DNA of 64,000 bases from Bacilli bacterium. GTDB lineage: Bacteria > Bacillota_I > Bacilli_A > RFN20 > CAG-826. The notes beneath the pieces were generated by a model. The model ran no database searches, was not told the DNA's origin, and saw only the letters and a list, made by a program, of their open reading frames with translations. Shown one piece after another: positions 1-64,000 of the stretch; position 1 is the stretch's first letter, and each line of letters begins with the position of its first letter. The position numbers and the translations under genes were made by a program. The stretch lies in the NCBI GenBank assembly GCA_017651165.1, contig JAGCDH010000010.1:17658-81657 (forward strand). The letters run 5' to 3'.

Positions 1-1549
1 CACCACCAAGGGCAATATTTGGATAAGAAGTGCCCCACTTAGTTATGCCTTCTGCTAAGTAGAGGTCAGCGACTTTGTATCTCAATTCATCACCATATTT
101 ATCAGAACTAACAATTCCAAGCTCATTATAAGCAAACGAATAATAGTTGTAGTATTTCGCAAAAATAGCATTGGTTTCGCTATCTTCGGGATAGAATTGG
201 TACTCTGAAGTAGAATTTGAAAGATCGATGTGTCGTGGATTAACATCACATGTATTGGTAATAAAATTCATATTAATAGTGATTCTATAAATACTCTTGT
301 TGTAAGCACCACCTTGAACGTGATATATACCAGCATCATCAGCCAAACAGTAATCTGCGTGAGAGTGGCCTTCTAAAACGAGATCAACGTAATGGTCATT
401 ACTTAATGAAATATCATATTCACTAGTTGTATCCCAAGAGAAAGTATTTCTATTCCATTCATAATAATTGCCATGGATAGAGTAAATGATAAAATCACAC
501 TTCTCTTGTTCCCTTAACCTTGTTGATTCAGCTTTAACCAAATTGGTTAATTGACTGCCTTTAGCAAAATAAACATCTCTTACTTTGCTATAAGAAATAG
601 AACTTAAGCAATCACCAATCGCACCAATGACACCAAACTTAACTCCAGCACGAGTAAAGGTTGTTGATGATTGGAGATAATCGACACGTTGATTATTCGC
701 CTTGTATAAAACATTGATTCCTAGTGTTGGGAAGTTGGCTAATTGTTGGTTTTGAATAATATATTCACTACCCCAGTCATATTCGTGGTTACCAACAGTC
801 ATAGAAACGAAGTTCAAAGAATTCATCCATTCAGTCACCAAGTTTCCGCGTGTGTTATTGCTTTCCACTGAACCTTGCCACATGTCACCTTGAGAGATGC
901 AAATAGTGTTCTTACCTTGTGACATTTCTTTTATGGCGCTTGTGGTTTTGGCCAAGCCTAAACCCGCACCATCAGTGTCGGTAACGTTACCATGTGTGTC
1001 ATTGAACGCAAAAAGCTCGAATGAAGCATAGTCTGGCTTAGTCTGTTGACTTGACGAGCTTGAAGATCCGCTACTAGATGATGGGTTGCTTGAGGAGCTC
1101 GCAGGATTGCTACTAGATGGGTGGTTACTTGAGGAACTCGCTGGATTACTAGTAGATGATGGTTTATTAGAAGAACTGCTTGAAGAAGGTTTGTTAGACG
1201 AACTTGAAGACGGTTTATTAGATGAACTTGATGAAGTAGCACTATTACTAGATGGTTTACTCGAGGAAGCGCTTGTACTAGTAGGATTGTTTGAGCTGCT
1301 ACTCGGTGTCAAAGAAGAACTGCTTGATTTTCCTTGGCTTGAACTACTTGGTGTAGGGGTAAGAGAGCTGCTACTTGGTTGGTTAAGGCTGGAAGATGAT
1401 GGAATCCCATCTTCTTTCGAAGAAGTGACACTACTGGAGTTTAAAGCAGTGAATGATGAATCTGAACTGCCCGCAAATTTAAAGCTACACGCAGTCGTGC
1501 ATAATGCTATAAGTGTTATCACACCAAGAAAGAGTTTTCTTTTTTTCAT
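1..1549 (-). CDS. Lipoprotein of the 5'-nucleotidase / calcineurin-like metallophosphoesterase family with a long Ser-rich tether. The C-terminal end runs off the window.
   Basis: Absent from the ORF track because no stop lies in the window. My translation from the ATG (complement of 1547-1549) gives MKKRKLFLGVITLIALCTTACSF, a signal peptide with a lipobox Cys. About 120 aa of S/P/N-rich linker follow. Then come the metallophosphatase motifs FAFNDTHGN, GDMWQGS, GNHEYDWG, SIHGNYYEW and EGHSH. The frame stays open to nt 1. Confidence 0.75.
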   Translation of the reverse strand, partial: MKKRKLFLGVITLIALCTTACSFKFAGSSDSSFTALNSSSVTSSKEDGIPSSSSLNQPSSSSLTPTPSSSSQGKSSSSSLTPSSSSNNPTSTSASSSKPSSNSATSSSSSNKPSSSSSNKPSSSSSSNKPSSTSNPASSSSNHPSSSNPASSSSNPSSSSGSSSSSSQQTKPDYASFELFAFNDTHGNVTDTDGAGLGLAKTTSAIKEMSQGKNTICISQGDMWQGSVESNNTRGNLVTEWMNSLNFVSMTVGNHEYDWGSEYIIQNQQLANFPTLGINVLYKANNQRVDYLQSSTTFTRAGVKFGVIGAIGDCLSSISYSKVRDVYFAKGSQLTNLVKAESTRLREQEKCDFIIYSIHGNYYEWNRNTFSWDTTSEYDISLSNDHYVDLVLEGHSHADYCLADDAGIYHVQGGAYNKSIYRITINMNFITNTCDVNPRHIDLSNSTSEYQFYPEDSETNAIFAKYYNYYSFAYNELGIVSSDKYGDELRYKVADLYLAEGITKWGTSYPNIALGG

Positions 1550-3890: not shown

Positions 3891-5591
3891 ATGCATTCAA
3901 TTAGAACAAAAACAACATTATTAAACGCCATAGCTATTGTGATCGCGGTCTTCGTGGCCACATTAATTGGTGCGATTACAATTGCTAACTTAGGACATAA
4001 TGATTCAGAAAAATCATTAAATCTTTTGTGTGAAACTGGAAAAAATAATCTTAACTACTACTTTAAGAGTGTTTCCCAGTCCATTGATACCGTGTCATCA
4101 ATTATCGAAGACGATTTAAAGAAAACTGATGACGCTGATTTTGGAAACCATATGAAACGCGCTTTCAGTTGGTTCCAAGAGGCAGCAAAACACACTAATG
4201 GTGCTTTAACTTATTACTATCGTATTGATCCAAATATTTCTAATAACTATCCAACTGATCCAGATGCTCCAGGTTTTTATTGGGTCAGAGAAAACGAAAC
4301 AGATACTGATTTTGTTGATTATGGCGCCACTCCTATCACCACCGATACCGATGGCTCATGTAAATGGTTCTGGGATTTAGCCCCAGCCAAAAATCCTGAT
4401 AAAAAATCAGTATGGTTAAGCCCATATATCACCGATAGGTTTAATAAATACGTTATTTCCTATAACACCCCAATCTATAAGAACAATACTTTCTATGGCG
4501 TTGCCGGTATGGAAATCCGTTATTTAGCCATGGGTAACCAAATTAATGACGTTACTTTGATGAAACATGGCTATGCCTTCATCGCGATGGGTCAAGGAAA
4601 TGAAGAAGAAAAAGGTAAACTTGTTTACCATCCACATCTTGACTTAGAAAATACTTTACCTAGTGAGTGGCCGGCTGTTCCTGAGGGCGTCAAGAAAGCG
4701 ATCGATAAGTACTATAGCTCTTCAGAAAGAAACGAGCCAATCCATTTTGAATATAAGTATAACGGTGTCAAAAAGCATGCCTCCATGCTCGGATTAAGTA
4801 ACGATATGGTTATCGTAGTCGGCATTCCATTTGCCGAAGTTAATGGTCCATGGGTCAAACTCATCATCCAAATCGTTATTGTTTCCACAATCATTTTAGT
4901 CGTCTTCGTCCTTATTACGGTTTTATATACAAGACACTTAACCAAACCATTAAAAGACTTAACAATTGCCGCGGAAGAAGTTAACAAAGGTAACTACGAT
5001 GTGGTAATTAAGTATAAAGGTAATGACGAGATAGGTGTTTTAGCTTCTACAGTTAACAATTTAATCGATCACCTCGAAGGTTACATCGGTGACCTCAATA
5101 GTTTAGCGTATGCTGATGCGTTAACATCCGTACGCAGCAAGAGCGCCTACGATATTTTCGAACGTGAAATGCAAGTTAGAATCGATGATAAGAATGACAA
5201 CCCAGAGTTTGCGATTGCCTTCTTTGATTGCGATGACTTAAAAGATATTAATGACCGCTACGGCCATGATAAAGGGGACGTGTATTTAAAGAACTCATGT
5301 CACCTCATTTGCCGTATCTTCCAACATAGTCCAATTTATAGAATTGGTGGCGATGAATTTGTCGTTGTTTTGATGGGTGAAGATTATCAACATCGTGAAA
5401 AATTAAAGAAGCAATTCATCGACAAGAGTGCAGAGATTTGTTCGTTTGCTAAAGAGCCTTGGGAACACATCTGTGTGGCTGTCGGTATCGCTGTTTATAA
5501 CGCCTCAATTGATAAGAACGTCGAAGACGTGTTAGTCCGTGCGGACCACTTGATGTACGAGAACAAACGCGAAAGAAAAAGCAAAAAATAA
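3891..5591 (+). CDS. Membrane sensor diguanylate cyclase (extracytoplasmic sensor domain, HAMP-like linker, GGDEF)
   Basis: 566 aa. Layout is TM helix, ~290-aa external domain, second TM, then a GGDEF domain. The GGDEF domain has an intact RIGGDEF motif and NDRYGHDKGD. Confidence 0.85.
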   Translation: MHSIRTKTTLLNAIAIVIAVFVATLIGAITIANLGHNDSEKSLNLLCETGKNNLNYYFKSVSQSIDTVSSIIEDDLKKTDDADFGNHMKRAFSWFQEAAKHTNGALTYYYRIDPNISNNYPTDPDAPGFYWVRENETDTDFVDYGATPITTDTDGSCKWFWDLAPAKNPDKKSVWLSPYITDRFNKYVISYNTPIYKNNTFYGVAGMEIRYLAMGNQINDVTLMKHGYAFIAMGQGNEEEKGKLVYHPHLDLENTLPSEWPAVPEGVKKAIDKYYSSSERNEPIHFEYKYNGVKKHASMLGLSNDMVIVVGIPFAEVNGPWVKLIIQIVIVSTIILVVFVLITVLYTRHLTKPLKDLTIAAEEVNKGNYDVVIKYKGNDEIGVLASTVNNLIDHLEGYIGDLNSLAYADALTSVRSKSAYDIFEREMQVRIDDKNDNPEFAIAFFDCDDLKDINDRYGHDKGDVYLKNSCHLICRIFQHSPIYRIGGDEFVVVLMGEDYQHREKLKKQFIDKSAEICSFAKEPWEHICVAVGIAVYNASIDKNVEDVLVRADHLMYENKRERKSKK

Positions 5592-5617
5592 AAACACAGC
5601 ACGAGTGTGTTTTTATT
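5591..5617. terminator. Bidirectional intrinsic terminator between convergent genes
   Basis: AAAACACA-gcacgag-TGTGTTTT hairpin flanked by an A-run and a T-run. Confidence 0.65.
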
Positions 5618-5656
5618 CTCCACTATTCTGCTTTTTAATATATTGCGTAGCGGGTC

Positions 5657-7054
5657 TTATGATTTGCTTACAAAGCTTGATTTATTTTCAAATGTCAAAT
5701 AATCCTTATTGGCGTCGTTAACATTAAGATAAACATTAACGGACATATTCTCATTAATTGGTTTTGTATAGATTTGATTATACTTGTTTCTTAATCTCGC
5801 GCCTTGGTTATTGGTAATAGTTAACTCATCGCCTGCGGTCAAATTAACATCTGGAATGAGATAGTTACCAGTAGTATCTAAAGGAATAGCAGCGTATCTC
5901 ATGCTGATACCTGAGCGAGTATAGCCACCAACAGTACCTGTTAAACAATAATCTGGATATTGTGATGGGCTAACATAAACGATACATGTGGCAGTAAAGT
6001 TGCCGTCAACTGTCTTTGCGGTAATCGTTGTGGAGCCCCTCTTTTCTTTAGCCACTACTCTTCCGCCACTGGTCACGGTAGCAATACTTTCATCACTTGA
6101 ACTCCATCTAACTTCCTTGTTAGTGGCGTTATTTGGATAAACTGTCGGAGTGATAACAAACTCATTTCTTACCAACAAATATTTACCAGTATTGCTTAAC
6201 GAAATACCAGAAACACTGACAGTACTTGATGTTTCATCAACCTTAGCCAAATAAATGTGTCCACCATCGGATTCGTTATAATCGCAGTAGATATCATAAA
6301 CACCGGTTGCGAGAACTTTGATATTATCATCGCTTGGTGCGGCAGTAACTAAACCAGATTTAACAGATGATTTAATCGCGGAATAGCCATACCATGTTTC
6401 GCCATACATATGGACTTTAAAGACATCATTGGCATAAAGATTAACGCCTTGAATCATATATTCTGTTGTGGAATATGGATTGATAACCATCTCTTTATCA
6501 GTCCAGTCTGTTTGACCGTTATAAAGACCATGTAAAACATAATTTGGAATTGTGACAGGTTGTTTGACTGTTAATGAACATTCAGCGGTTTTGTTACCAT
6601 CAACAGTTATGACTGTGATTTTTGTGGTTCCTGGTCCAACTGGTGTGATGTTGCCATCGTTAACTGTAGCCACGGATGGATCGCTGCTCGACCAAGTCAC
6701 ACTCTTATTCGTGGCGTTTTCTGGTAAAACAGTGGCCACCAAAGAAGCAGAAGTATCATCTGTATAAATCTCTAAAGAAGACTTATTTAAACCTACGGAA
6801 GTAACTGAAACAACAGTTTCCGTGCTACTTGAAGGTTTTACTTGAGAACTAGAGCTTGGGGCATTACTTGAACTAATGCTTGGACTATTGCTCGAGCTAA
6901 CACTTGGATTAGCGCTGGAACTAACACTACTAGAAACAGAAACACTATCGCTTTTTGAAGTGCTGGTGTCAGTAGAACCTTTAGACGAACAAGCGATAAT
7001 AACAAAAGGTATTAATAGGTTTAAAACGAGATATTTCTTTTTCATGCGTTTCAT
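5657..7054 (-). CDS. Surface lipoprotein with two Big_2 (bacterial Ig-like group 2) domains
   Basis: An internal ATG gives MKRMKKKYLVLNLLIPFVIIACSS with a lipobox, then a Ser-rich tether. Two Big_2 signatures are present: VTWSSSDPSVATVNDGNITPVGPGTTKITV and VRWSSSDESIATVTSGGRVVA. Each is followed by a ~100-aa beta-rich module. Confidence 0.7.
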   Translation of the reverse strand: MKRMKKKYLVLNLLIPFVIIACSSKGSTDTSTSKSDSVSVSSSVSSSANPSVSSSNSPSISSSNAPSSSSQVKPSSSTETVVSVTSVGLNKSSLEIYTDDTSASLVATVLPENATNKSVTWSSSDPSVATVNDGNITPVGPGTTKITVITVDGNKTAECSLTVKQPVTIPNYVLHGLYNGQTDWTDKEMVINPYSTTEYMIQGVNLYANDVFKVHMYGETWYGYSAIKSSVKSGLVTAAPSDDNIKVLATGVYDIYCDYNESDGGHIYLAKVDETSSTVSVSGISLSNTGKYLLVRNEFVITPTVYPNNATNKEVRWSSSDESIATVTSGGRVVAKEKRGSTTITAKTVDGNFTATCIVYVSPSQYPDYCLTGTVGGYTRSGISMRYAAIPLDTTGNYLIPDVNLTAGDELTITNNQGARLRNKYNQIYTKPINENMSVNVYLNVNDANKDYLTFENKSSFVSKS

Positions 7055-25003: not shown

Positions 25004-25079
25004 GGCCCGGTAGCTCAGCTAGTAGAGCAATGGACTGAAAATCCATGTGTCGCCGGCGCGCTCCCGGCCTGGGCCACCA
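25004..25079 (+). tRNA. tRNA-Phe (anticodon GAA) with a highly atypical T-loop and D-loop
   Basis: Acceptor GGCCCGG/CTGGGCC, anticodon arm ATGGA-CTGAAAA-TCCAT, T-stem GCCGG/CCGGC. The T-loop is CGCGCTC instead of TTCRAnn, and the D-loop is AGCTAGTA (A where G18 is expected). Confidence 0.7.
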
Positions 25080-61416: not shown

Positions 61417-62117
61417 TCAATATCCTCGATGCGTTTTGGATTCGGATTATATTCATCGTAAATGAGTTTACCATTACGCATTTTAATGAGGTGGTCCGCC
61501 ATATCGGCTAAAGCGGAGTTATGAGTCACAATAATAACGGTTTTACCGTTTTCTTTTGCTTCTTTACTTAGTAAAGCCAAAATGCCCTTACCAGTTTCAT
61601 AGTCTAAGGCACCAGTTGGTTCATCACAAAGAATGATGTCGCAGTTTTTAGCGACCGCTCTAGCGATAGAAACTCTTTGTTGTTCACCACCAGATAACTG
61701 AGACGGGAAGTTTTTATCTTTATCTTTTAAACCAACGGATTCTAATACATCTTTTGGATTTAAAGCGTCTTTCTTTAATTCAGTGGCTAATTCAACATTC
61801 TCAACCGCGGTCAAATTGGGCATGAGGTTATAGAACTGGAAAACAAAGCCAATCTTATTTCTCCTAAAACCAACGAGATCTTTTTTAGTGAATTTAGAAA
61901 CATCACTACCATCAATGACTAAAGAACCAGATGTGAGTGTATCCATTCCCCCTAAAAGATTTAAAAGGGTGGTTTTACCGGCACCAGACTGACCTAAAAT
62001 GACGACTAGTTCGCCTTTATTAATAGAAAAATCAATTTCGTTAACAGCGATCACTTCAATATCACCACTAACAAACTTTTTAGTTACTTTTTCGCCACGA
62101 ATAATACATTCAGCCAT
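61410..62117 (-). CDS. ABC transporter ATP-binding protein (MacB/LolD-like)
   Basis: Walker A is GQSGAGKTT, the signature is LSGGEQQR and Walker B is ILCDEPTG. The ATG at 62117 gives MAECIIRGEK. The track start at 62132 is a TTG. Confidence 0.85.
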   Translation of the reverse strand: MAECIIRGEKVTKKFVSGDIEVIAVNEIDFSINKGELVVILGQSGAGKTTLLNLLGGMDTLTSGSLVIDGSDVSKFTKKDLVGFRRNKIGFVFQFYNLMPNLTAVENVELATELKKDALNPKDVLESVGLKDKDKNFPSQLSGGEQQRVSIARAVAKNCDIILCDEPTGALDYETGKGILALLSKEAKENGKTVIIVTHNSALADMADHLIKMRNGKLIYDEYNPNPKRIEDIEW

Positions 62118-62182
62118 AAGTAATACTTTCAATATTGATTATAAATAATATTGAGGTATTAGCATAGCACCAATTAAAATAC

Positions 62183-62216
62183 AAAAAAATGATGCAAAGC
62201 ATCATTATTTTTTTTG
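62183..62216. terminator. Strong bidirectional intrinsic terminator between the repeat region and the ABC operon
   Basis: AATGATGC-aaa-GCATCATT, with an A7 run before it and a T9 run after it. Confidence 0.75.
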
Positions 62217-62358
62217 TACTTGTCTAAACCCGTTATACACATTTCGTACGAATTTCTTGTCCATGTACTTACTGGTAATTTTGCAAGTGTTAACTAATGA
62301 TAATAGAGAAACTATTTCAGCCACCTACCACCATCTCATACCTTAGTTACCAGTACGA

Positions 62359-62387
62359 TGATGCGAGTTCGATTCTTGTCACCCCTG
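62359..62387 (+). other. Plus-strand copy (29/29 nt) of the 3' half of the minus-strand tRNA-Trp gene
   Basis: TGATGCGAGTTCGATTCTTGTCACCCCTG is the exact reverse complement of 62988-63016 (variable loop, T-arm, 3' acceptor strand and discriminator). Confidence 0.9.
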
Positions 62388-62464
62388 ACATACTTACCAT
62401 AGGTAATACGTCCCTACTTATGTCCTAGCCTAGATATCCGGGTATAGAACTTAAGCCTGGGAGA

Positions 62465-62499
62465 TAAAGAAAAAAGCTCCGGGTTTTATACTCGAAGCT
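62465..62499 (-). terminator. Intrinsic terminator inside repeat unit 1 (minus-strand orientation)
   Basis: On the minus strand: AGCTTCGAG-tataaaa-CCCGGAGCT followed by TTTTTTCTTTATC. Confidence 0.6.
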
Positions 62500-62750
62500 C
62501 TTCTATCTCTGACCCGTACAATCTGGTACATCCTGGAGGACATTCTCTTCGAACATTTCCTGGACATCCTGGTCGGACATCGACATTTTTGTGTAATCGT
62601 TTAAACCCGTTATCCACATTTCGTACGAACTCACTGTCCTCTGTTAATCACCAGTACAACCTGGCTTTTAGACGCTTTTCCACTAATGATAGATGAGAAT
62701 CTATTTCATCCATCTACCACCACCTAGAACTTGGTATATCCATGAACCGA

Positions 62751-62781
62751 TGATGTGAGTTCAATTCTTATCACCCCTGCC
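62751..62781 (+). other. Diverged plus-strand copy of the tRNA-Trp 3' half
   Basis: TGATGtGAGTTCaATTCTTaTCACCCCTGCC has three substitutions. Two of them (62756 C to T, 62770 G to A) convert the C-G pair of the T-stem into T-A. Confidence 0.85.
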
Positions 62782-62864
62782 TTTACCATAGGTAATATGT
62801 CCCTACTCATGTCCTAACCTAGAAGAACTGGTAATACGAACTGGAACCTGGAGATAAAGAAAAA

Positions 62865-62897
62865 GGCTTCGGGTTTTACCTGAAGCTCTTCATCTAT
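62865..62897 (-). terminator. Intrinsic terminator inside repeat unit 2 (minus-strand orientation), ~90 nt downstream of tRNA-Trp
   Basis: On the minus strand: GCTTCAGG-taaaa-CCCGAAGC followed by CTTTTTCTTTATC. Confidence 0.6.
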
Positions 62898-62984
62898 GTT
62901 CTGGTATCCAATCCTGGTTCATCCTGGAGGACATTCTCTTCGAACGTTTCCTGGACATCCTGGTCGGACGTTGACATTTTGATT

Positions 62985-63058
62985 TGGCAGGGGTGACAAG
63001 AATCGAACTCGCATCAGCGGTTTTGGAGACCGTTGCACTGCCATTGTGCTACACCCCT
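62985..63058 (-). tRNA. tRNA-Trp (anticodon CCA)
   Basis: AGGGGTG...CACCCCTGCCA, D-arm GCAC-AATGGCA-GTGC, anticodon loop CTCCAAA and T-arm GCGAG-TTCGATT-CTTGT. Confidence 0.9.
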
Positions 63059-63087
63059 ATTGCGCTTTGATATTATTGCATAAACCA

Positions 63088-63546
63088 TTAACGGTTTTCA
63101 ACACTAATTAATTCACCATTACGATAAGTAAGAGTCATTTTGAAATATGGCTCGTGATTAATGAGTTTTGGTAGGAATGCTTTATCCCCTTCCCACATCG
63201 GATAATCATAGATATCTTTGATAGGAATCCATTTAAGATCACCTTCGTTACATTCAATCGTCTCGCCAGAAAAGTCAGTTATCTCATACACGTACATCAT
63301 CATTTTTATGTTTTCGTCTACGAATAAAACTTCTCCCGCACATTTTAAAGAATGCACGTCATAACCGGTTTCTTCTTTGACTTCTCTTATGGCGCATTGA
63401 TCGATGGTTTCGCCTTTTTCGACATGACCACCGACACCAATCCATTTGCCTTCATTGATGTCGTTTTTCTTTTTGTTGCGAAGCAAAAGAAGATAAGAGT
63501 TATCTCTTTTTAAGTAGATCATTGTTGTATCAATCACATCGGTCAT
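63088..63546 (-). CDS. NUDIX hydrolase (MutT-like)
   Basis: The Nudix box is GGHVEKGETIDQCAIREVKEETG. The ATG at 63546 gives MTDVIDTT. The track start at 63561 is a TTG. Confidence 0.8.
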   Translation of the reverse strand: MTDVIDTTMIYLKRDNSYLLLLRNKKKNDINEGKWIGVGGHVEKGETIDQCAIREVKEETGYDVHSLKCAGEVLFVDENIKMMMYVYEITDFSGETIECNEGDLKWIPIKDIYDYPMWEGDKAFLPKLINHEPYFKMTLTYRNGELISVENR

Positions 63547-63561
63547 GATACAAAGATACAA

Positions 63562-64000
63562 TTATGCTTGCGGATTATCAATATGTCCCACGAATATTGG
63601 TGTATCATTAGCGTCTTTAATAATGTAAATAAATGGCTGATTGAGTTTCACATCTAAAGTGTCAACTTCTTCCCTCCAAGAACCACCCTTGCCGCCTTCA
63701 GCGGCCATGGTCACGCTTTTAACAATCGTCCCATCTTCATTGAATTCGACTTGGTTTTTTTGTTTAAGGGTTTGGAGATAAATATTGATATTGTTGGTTG
63801 TTTCTGGATTAAAAGCGCCATGGAAAGAATCGTAATTATCATCATACATATCACCAAAGCCAAGGTTTTCTAAACAGAGACGGAAATCGATACTAGCGTT
63901 ATTCTTAAACTTTGGAGTTTGTAAATTCACAGTAATGTGGTGATTTTTAGGCAACACTTTATTATCTTCATTTTCTTGGAAAATATTGATGTCTTTGGTT
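63562..64000 (-). CDS. Serpin (protease inhibitor I4 family), C-terminal part. The N-terminus lies beyond the window.
   Basis: The frame is open to nt 64000. A reactive-centre-loop-like segment (VTMAAEGGKGGSW) is followed by the serpin C-terminal signature LNQPFIYIIKDANDTPIFVGHIDNP. Confidence 0.7.
   Translation of the reverse strand, partial: TKDINIFQENEDNKVLPKNHHITVNLQTPKFKNNASIDFRLCLENLGFGDMYDDNYDSFHGAFNPETTNNINIYLQTLKQKNQVEFNEDGTIVKSVTMAAEGGKGGSWREEVDTLDVKLNQPFIYIIKDANDTPIFVGHIDNPQA

Follow-up and report, generated by a model that had tools for sequence, protein, structure and literature searches.

Two oriented insertions behind a tRNA-Trp gene of a gut Bacilli bacterium, resembling gene-less Tn7-like elements

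The window analysed here is the whole 64,000-nucleotide stretch of contig JAGCDH010000010.1 (assembly GCA_017651165.1) from an uncultured Bacilli bacterium. It contains a tRNA-Trp(CCA) gene (62985-63058, minus strand; called by ARAGORN, 62 bits against the Rfam tRNA model) followed by an ATP-binding cassette (ABC) transporter operon, which begins near 62132 and is read in the same direction. Between the two lies an array of two related units, U2 and U1, and this array is an insertion of mobile DNA aimed at the 3' flank of tRNA-Trp. It probably arose by two independent and successive insertions of a small non-autonomous transposon, similar to the MITEs (miniature transposable elements with inverted repeats) and specific in both site and orientation, at a position 8-10 nt 3' of the tRNA gene. 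Because the ends, the 5-bp target duplication, the oriented repeats, the fixed site and the stacking all co-occur, the units are proposed to be gene-less derivatives of a Tn7-like transposon.

The preliminary description of this locus, made from the sequence of the window, presented an apparently unique tandem RNA locus antisense to the tRNA. The locus is now seen as a mobile element with precise boundaries, for which a conserved tRNA gene serves as the landing pad in uncultured gut Bacillota. The element is very small and strictly specific in site and orientation, has a terminator of its own and contains a well-conserved copy of the sequence next to which it sits. As judged from its sequence, what is new is a copy of the landmark carried by a site-specific MITE of Tn7-like appearance.

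Ends, boundaries and empty sites

The ends and boundaries of both units are given as read in the direction of the tRNA gene, on the minus strand. U2 is 385 bp long (62592-62976), starts with 5'-TGTCAACG and finishes with GATTACA-3', while U1 is 371 bp long (62215-62585), starts with 5'-TGTCGATG and finishes with AAGTACA-3'. U2 lies between tRNA-Trp and U1, and the two are separately bounded, with 6 nt between them (the junction CAAAAA, 62586-62591). Their limits are marked by terminal inverted repeats (TIRs) and by flanking duplications (CAAAA for U2 and AAAAA for U1). The two direct repeats reported in the preliminary description are real, with conserved blocks that are 83-94% identical and are spaced 377-392 nt apart, but the head-to-tail arrangement with a 377-bp period does not hold: one element measures 371 bp, the other 385 bp, and 6 nt lie between. 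The overall identity of U1 and U2 is 77%; the spacers between the blocks align poorly, at 35-65%.

Both units open with TGTC and close with TACA, giving TGT...ACA termini, and the copies in loci L020 and L048 also open with TGT. The TIRs are imperfect and about 48 bp long, with an ungapped identity of 28/48 in U2 and 25/48 in U1, scores that are reached by 1 and by 16, respectively, of 200,000 random 48-mers from the window. The positions in common include TGTnAnCGT, TCCA, CGTnCGAA and TGTCC. A hidden Markov model built from the five known ends matches only those ends in the window and the 48 fetched loci.

The motif YGTCC occurs six times in each unit, against an expectation of 0.52 per 380 nt. 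Three sites point inward from the tRNA-proximal L end, at +6, +19 and +43, and three point inward from the tRNA-distal R end, at +43 and at about +195 and +207, the latter two adjoining an internal tRNA fragment described below. They are presumed to be transposase-binding sites. In U2 the L end occupies 62929-62976 (minus strand), and its +19 and +43 sites are kept in two divergent copies (P0167 and P0172). The R end occupies 62592-62639 (plus strand), where it begins with TGTAATCG and holds the palindrome TTCGTACGAA. A further conserved segment, the C block (62783-62815, plus strand), combines the perfect palindrome TTACCATAGGTAA with two YGTCC sites that come after it in the R-end orientation; it might be a decayed L end, but has the YGTCC motif alone in common with the L end. 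The mosaic conservation of the units was correctly described at the outset, where it was read as a sign of functional RNA or protein-binding modules; transposase-binding ends and sites explain it better than structured RNA does.

The NUDIX protein next to the locus assigns the window to an uncultured Bacilli/Erysipelotrichia lineage known from gut metagenomes. The state of the locus before insertion can be seen in related strains. In L011, L012 and L013, whose NUDIX proteins are 93-95% identical to that of the window, tRNA-Trp and the ABC gene are only about 140-210 bp apart, with no trace of the units. The empty site of L012, with flanks 91-92% identical to the window, reads tRNA-CCA-AATCAACAAAAG-TAATGATG..., or over a fuller span tRNA-CCA-AATCAACAAAAG-TAATGATGCTTTGCATCATT. 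By contrast with these strains, three independent metagenome assemblies with an identical NUDIX protein (L001-L003) contain the same array at 99.9-100% identity. The tRNA-Trp gene itself is the attachment landmark: it is intact and has the same sequence in filled and empty sites, and its 3' half shows no mismatch among loci L001-L038.

Each unit is flanked by a 5-bp target duplication, in the arrangements CAAAA/U2/CAAAA and AAAAA/U1/AAAAA. The left copy of the U2 duplication (62977-62981) is part of the native tRNA trailer AAT + CAAAA (62977-62984, minus strand), which is recognized by its sequence and from the empty site of L012. The right copy is the CAAAA at 62587-62591 in the junction between the units, overlapped by the run of A at 62586-62590 that forms the left copy of the AAAAA of U1. 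Relative to L012, the filled site has nine extra bases that do not belong to the elements, whereas two 5-bp duplications predict ten. As the tract is A-rich, the duplications are supportive rather than decisive.

The bidirectional terminator that closes the array (62188-62206) was correctly noted before. In L012 and L028, both of them empty sites, the same hairpin directly follows tRNA-Trp, and it is therefore the native terminator of tRNA-Trp. Since the empty site carries this terminator, both units were inserted between it and the tRNA gene, and the two insertions have moved it about 770 bp away from tRNA-Trp.

Further copies at the same target

When one genome of each GTDB species was scanned with an exact 22-mer, a single true match emerged, in locus L020 of a rumen Erysipelotrichaceae metagenome-assembled genome. 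The copy consists of the first ~135 nt alone, that is, the end and the terminator. The tRNA-Trp before it is identical; TGTC starts 9 nt after its CCA, and a PadR gene comes next. In DNA sequence this copy and U2 agree at 87-92%, compared with an identity of just ~68% for the NUDIX proteins next to them; the far closer match of the element than of its neighbours points to horizontal spread.

Three more loci were recovered with a spurious open reading frame (ORF) that starts in tRNA-Trp and reads into U2, as the element had been called there as the ORFs P0167, P0169 and P0172. P0169 belongs to L048, from an unrelated genome, in which an Opp transporter, a DUF3899 protein and tRNA-Trp are followed by the element, starting 10 nt after CCA; the contig ends inside it. 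The first 140 nt of U2 are 95% identical to L048, 87% to L020 and 84% to U1. Because U2 is closer to L048 than to U1, U1 appears to have entered first and a U2-type element later at the same target, which would make U2 the younger and U1 the older insertion. The divergent copies P0167 and P0172, compared in translation, keep the stretches encoding the +19 and +43 YGTCC sites, while the spacer between these sites differs.

In all five loci (5/5) the same end of the element faces tRNA-Trp, and TGTC starts 8-10 nt after CCA: at 8 nt in the window and, as inferred, in P0167, at 9 nt in L020, and at 10 nt in L048 and, again as inferred, in P0172. These loci represent at least three gene contexts, namely NUDIX-tRNA-ABC in the window, NUDIX-tRNA-PadR in L020 and Opp-DUF3899-tRNA in L048. 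Insertion thus appears to be specific for both site and orientation across the copies compared.

Other searches gave no further copies. The whole array had no blastn match in phage and plasmid collections, and IMG/VR gave no exact occurrence of any of five patterns, namely three blocks of the element, the U2 variant of the tRNA and a pattern of two L-end sites. A scan of JGI metagenomes gave six chance 20-mers alone, on unrelated GC-rich contigs. Synteny walks from the NUDIX homologues led to empty sites or other cargo and, apart from L048 (reached via P0169), to no more copies, and a spurious 43-aa ORF across the tRNA fragment, used as a query, gave zero candidates.

The contigs of relatives often end in the element or just past tRNA-Trp, as in L004 (6699), L048 (10211) and L033-L036. 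Such breaks are what a repeated region, or one polymorphic within the populations sampled, should produce.

In the proposed mechanism, an autonomous relative would supply in trans a TnsB/MuA-type DDE transposase, which would cut at the TGT/ACA ends and attach these to the target with a 5-bp stagger. The conserved 3' half of the tRNA gene would be read by a target selector that sets both position and orientation, the task of TnsD/TniQ in Tn7-like elements. U1 would be inserted first, and U2 would then enter the same target between the tRNA and U1, a case of accretion at an attachment site. The terminator of the element, located ~100-135 nt from its tRNA-proximal end, would now stop the read-through from tRNA-Trp.

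The internal tRNA half and rival explanations

Each unit contains a copy of the 3' half of tRNA-Trp, which is internal to the element and inverted relative to the gene, as the preliminary description had pointed out. In U1 the copy is 35 nt long (62356-62390, plus strand), with 33/35 matches (94%) and the central 29 nt identical. In U2 it extends from the anticodon loop to CC over 37 nt (62745-62781, plus strand; 89%, four mismatches), and its 29-nt core contains three changes, two of which convert the T-stem pair C50-G64 to U-A, the third being G57 to A in the T-loop (positions from the cmscan alignment). By their nature these changes all look compatible with a working tRNA, the one at the 50-64 pair being compensatory and that at position 57 purine-to-purine. 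Phage records gave no exact match to a natural tRNA-Trp with the U2-variant T-arm. A 23-mer from this segment is expected to occur by chance 0 times in the window, and the other seven tRNAs of the window are without such inverted copies.

The fragments of U1 and U2 are 91% identical (~9% divergence, compared with 23% for the whole element), a level of conservation that resembles that of the element ends. The tRNA reads CGCTGATG where both fragments read CGATGATG, with a derived A; this shared base indicates that the fragment was present in their common ancestor. Along the tRNA gene, the match begins 41-45 bp before the target duplication and stops 4-8 bp short of it. Within the element, two YGTCC sites are found 15-16 nt past the fragment, oriented as at the real tRNA-element junction, and no direct repeats were found to flank it. 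The fragment may be a targeting module, a captured attachment (att) junction or a protein-binding mimic of the attachment site. A link to target choice, through a guide RNA copied from the attachment site or through a protein-binding mimic, is taken as the most likely, with a captured junction that gene conversion keeps in step with the host tRNA close behind. Should it aid targeting, it would represent a compact form of target-copy-directed transposition outside the cyanobacterial and proteobacterial CRISPR-associated transposons (CASTs; CRISPR, clusters of short palindromic repeats spaced at regular intervals), with relevance to transposon biology and programmable insertion tools. Should it be a captured junction, the array would still be a clean record, made in nature, of elements accreting repeatedly at an attachment site.

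Characteristically, Tn7 relatives duplicate 5 bp, insert in a controlled orientation and carry TnsB sites in arrays (PMC11406308), and tRNA genes are used as att sites via TnsD or a CRISPR RNA (PMC11406308; PMC11837452). TnsD-dependent homing of CyCAST places the insertion 30-33 nt after the tRNA (PMC10293859). Cyanobacterial Tn7-like elements are also found behind tRNA genes, some with an inverted copy of the target that acts as a guide spacer (PMC11406308; 10.1101/2021.02.06.429022), so that the earlier statement that no element with such a layout had been described is only partly true.

The units share many properties with the Tn7-like elements that use tRNA attachment sites, that is, the I-B2/I-D CAST lineage and its non-CRISPR relatives (PMC11406308, PMC11837452, PMC10293859). 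These are the fixed short distance 3' of an intact tRNA, the single orientation, the 5-bp duplication, the TGT...ACA termini, subterminal repeats that differ between the two ends and the possibility of stacking. Unlike those elements, the units are gene-less and only 371-385 bp long, their host is a member of Bacillota (Erysipelotrichaceae-like) and not a cyanobacterium, and no TnsA, TnsB, TnsC or TniQ is linked to them. A tRNA copy is not reported for known elements of the TnsD type, while the units carry one.

The similarity to bacterial MITEs, which are small and gene-less, have TIRs and target duplications, are mobilized in trans, are structured when transcribed and are patchy among strains (PMC11602168), is also close: the units are small, non-coding, bounded by TIRs, flanked by a duplication and absent from related strains. 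Typical MITEs, however, occur as many dispersed copies at loosely defined targets, whereas the units are known from one tRNA site only and carry a copy of that landmark.

Several points weigh against a Tn7-like MITE. The assignment to Tn7-like elements is drawn from end architecture alone, because no full-length autonomous copy was recovered, and the 39 ORFs of >=180 aa in the window include no transposase, recombinase or target selector (Pfam was run on 34 of them; the other five are an M6 protease, ThrE, FtsX and ABC genes). Only two copies are complete, both of them in the window, the others being L ends cut by contig ends or translated ORFs. The insertion distance of 8-10 nt departs from that of characterized systems such as the 30-33 nt of CyCAST TnsD. 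The duplications on their own are weak evidence in an A-rich tract, the more so as the pre-insertion comparison comes from a sister strain, L012. As to the fragment, neither a promoter nor a Rfam or CRISPR-repeat match was found for it, and gene conversion with the tRNA could explain its conservation.

With regard to the fragment, it is possible, if rather doubtful, that it is a functionless old att junction, captured through a nested insertion, an inversion or a deletion and kept tRNA-like by gene conversion. Displaced tRNA 3' halves at integration sites usually span the anticodon loop to CC(A), the same extent as that of the fragment. The two YGTCC sites that follow it have the relative orientation of a real junction, and the identity of the U1 copy to the resident tRNA over 29 nt is what gene conversion gives. 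However, outside YGTCC no alignment with the real L end is obtained for the sequence past the fragment, and the fragment is far better conserved than the neighbouring spacers at 23% overall divergence. The U2 copy differs from the resident tRNA, which excludes a recent conversion by it. Moreover, the derived base common to both copies is absent from the tRNA.

The repeated tRNA 3' half also recalls the attL/attR scars of tyrosine integrases and cis-mobilizable elements (CIMEs), which share with the array the hot spot at the tRNA 3' flank, the repetition of a tRNA 3' half from the anticodon loop to the 3' end and the occurrence of tandem elements. In those systems the copies are direct repeats at the borders, with the crossover inside the tRNA. 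Neither is seen in the array, where the copies are internal and in inverted orientation, the elements join the flank 8 nt beyond the tRNA, and both TIRs and 5-bp duplications occur. The units look like intact, TIR-bounded mini-transposons that entered outside the tRNA and not like decayed att scars. Among the explanations first offered, relics of tRNA-targeted integration thus came close in regard to inserted mobile DNA, but not in regard to decay or to entry within the tRNA.

A role of the fragment as a homing determinant, either through a guide RNA with tRNA-sense sequence or through DNA that mimics the att site, is unlikely. It would amount to a CAST-like logic without recognizable CRISPR parts in Erysipelotrichaceae of gut and rumen. 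A spacer of 29-37 nt would be within the usual length range, and RNA-guided transposons insert tens of base pairs beyond the protospacer, in the case of Cas12k ~60-66 bp from the PAM, a motif adjacent to the protospacer. A parallel is the type V-K (Cas12k) att-targeting repeat-spacer, in which a short inverted copy of the tRNA gene likewise lies inside the element near the end that abuts the tRNA, spacer and protospacer being oppositely oriented (10.1101/2021.02.06.429022). The copy in the units has this layout, being inverted, inside the element and pointing to the tRNA-proximal end; it is ancestral, its conservation equals that of the TIRs, and the U2 changes, which fit a working tRNA, are expected of a copy that tracks a host tRNA variant.

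The type V-K systems, however, have a 17-bp match, a partial CRISPR repeat (GAAAG/C), a GTN PAM, Cas12k, a trans-activating CRISPR RNA (tracrRNA) and a CRISPR array. In the units the match extends over 29-37 nt and the inverted att copy is present, but it has no flanking repeat or scaffold: no CRISPR direct repeat, tracrRNA or other guide family was detected in 61500-64000 by a Rfam scan at E up to 10, and neither cas nor tniQ genes were seen. The characteristic insertion distance is missing as well, as the insertion lies just 4-8 bp past the match, unlike in any characterized RNA-guided transposon. No promoter-like site is present inside the array on either strand, the plus-strand folds of the two units are not better than shuffles (z = -1.0 and -1.8), and a non-autonomous element needs no guide of its own. 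If homing by the fragment nevertheless proved true, targeting by a copy of the landing site would have been invented independently outside CASTs and kept even in 380-bp gene-less derivatives.

It is very improbable that the two units arose by local duplication of a host gene encoding a structured small RNA (sRNA), for example an antisense or sponge of tRNA-Trp that would act on the tRNA or the ABC operon; sRNA and tRNA-pairing readings were among those offered initially. In its favour, the minus-strand folds of the two units beat shuffles (z = -3.2 and -3.1), several helices have G.U pairs that are valid on the minus strand alone, and this strand contains the 29-37-nt stretch antisense to tRNA-Trp. 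Against it, the closest strains lack the units, U2 is nearer to a copy from another genome than to U1, and the TIRs and duplications fit a transposon and not a duplicated host gene. In the same Rfam 15 scan, made on both strands, the tRNA alone reached the gathering score, the next-best match being to the terminator-like ctRNA_p42d (25 bits versus a gathering score of 50). With two full copies in the alignment, covariation is not convincing for any helix, and the search for a promoter inside the array gave none.

Each unit has an intrinsic terminator in the tRNA direction, as stated in the preliminary description. The terminator of U2 (62856-62890, minus strand) is a hairpin with a T-tract, in which U-A to U.G changes fit RNA of the minus strand alone; that of U1 (62466-62502, minus strand) is the source of the weak ctRNA-like hairpin match. 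Across four copies of the unit terminators 87.5% of the cells pair, and the variation is one-sided, with U-A/U.G changes only. Because the terminator is located upstream of the antisense stretch, read-through from the tRNA would stop short of the latter.

A function of the inverted tRNA halves as DNA-inversion sites, which would swap the tRNA 3' half or flip the intervening segment, is hardly credible: the inverted repeats of 35-37 bp do lie 204 and 594 nt from the gene copy, but the window and L001-L003 have a single arrangement at 99.9-100% identity, no invertase or recombinase occurs among the scanned window ORFs, and inversion would put a non-terminating hairpin behind the tRNA.

Other content of the array and the hot spot in relatives

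The array has a G+C content of 0.42, which rises to 0.44 for 62341-62600, versus 0.375 for the window, in agreement with the enrichment estimated previously. In line with the same description, there is no convincing ORF between tRNA-Trp and the ABC operon. A 27-codon acidic ORF on the minus strand was considered as a peptide gene and rejected: it is without a Shine-Dalgarno sequence, its start codon is made of a flank base and the terminal TG, and it is disrupted by a frameshift in L048 and by a radical change in P0172. The conserved block D3 of U2 (62682-62725, plus strand) folds on the minus strand into a 12-bp hairpin with G.U pairs.

In L020, the partial end is followed by genes for a PadR-family regulator (740-1360, minus strand) and a small membrane protein (354-737, minus strand), and the contig ends 1.4 kb on. 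These genes may be the cargo of a larger element with the same ends.

The stretch 3' of tRNA-Trp is a hot spot in relatives. In L027-L032 (positions about 4600-6500 in each) an identical NUDIX protein (P0068) is accompanied by four gene sets behind tRNA-Trp, each with its own tRNA terminator: a pair of TM1586-like nitroreductases, an ABC transporter pair, a 74-aa ORF and a 250-aa ORF. Four gene sets behind one NUDIX protein indicate a very fast gene turnover at this site. In one species-level group, L041 (4807-8067) has an intact 1086-aa ORF, while the corresponding segment of L040 (4807-6997) is broken, gene-poor and apparently decayed.

The COG3943 RNA motif (RF02941, 101-106 bits) is present in an insert of ~1 kb behind tRNA-Trp in the sister strains L006 (8455-8564, minus strand) and L014 (7390-7498, minus strand), where it lies in the leader of a 118-aa ORF without a Pfam match. 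A relationship of the window units to this insert was considered and rejected, as the similarity ends at the tRNA and the insert carries the COG3943 RNA.

Elsewhere in the window, the tRNA-Phe(GAA) gene (25004-25079, plus strand; 56 bits versus the Rfam tRNA model) has the T-loop CGCGCUC in place of the near-universal UUCGAAU.

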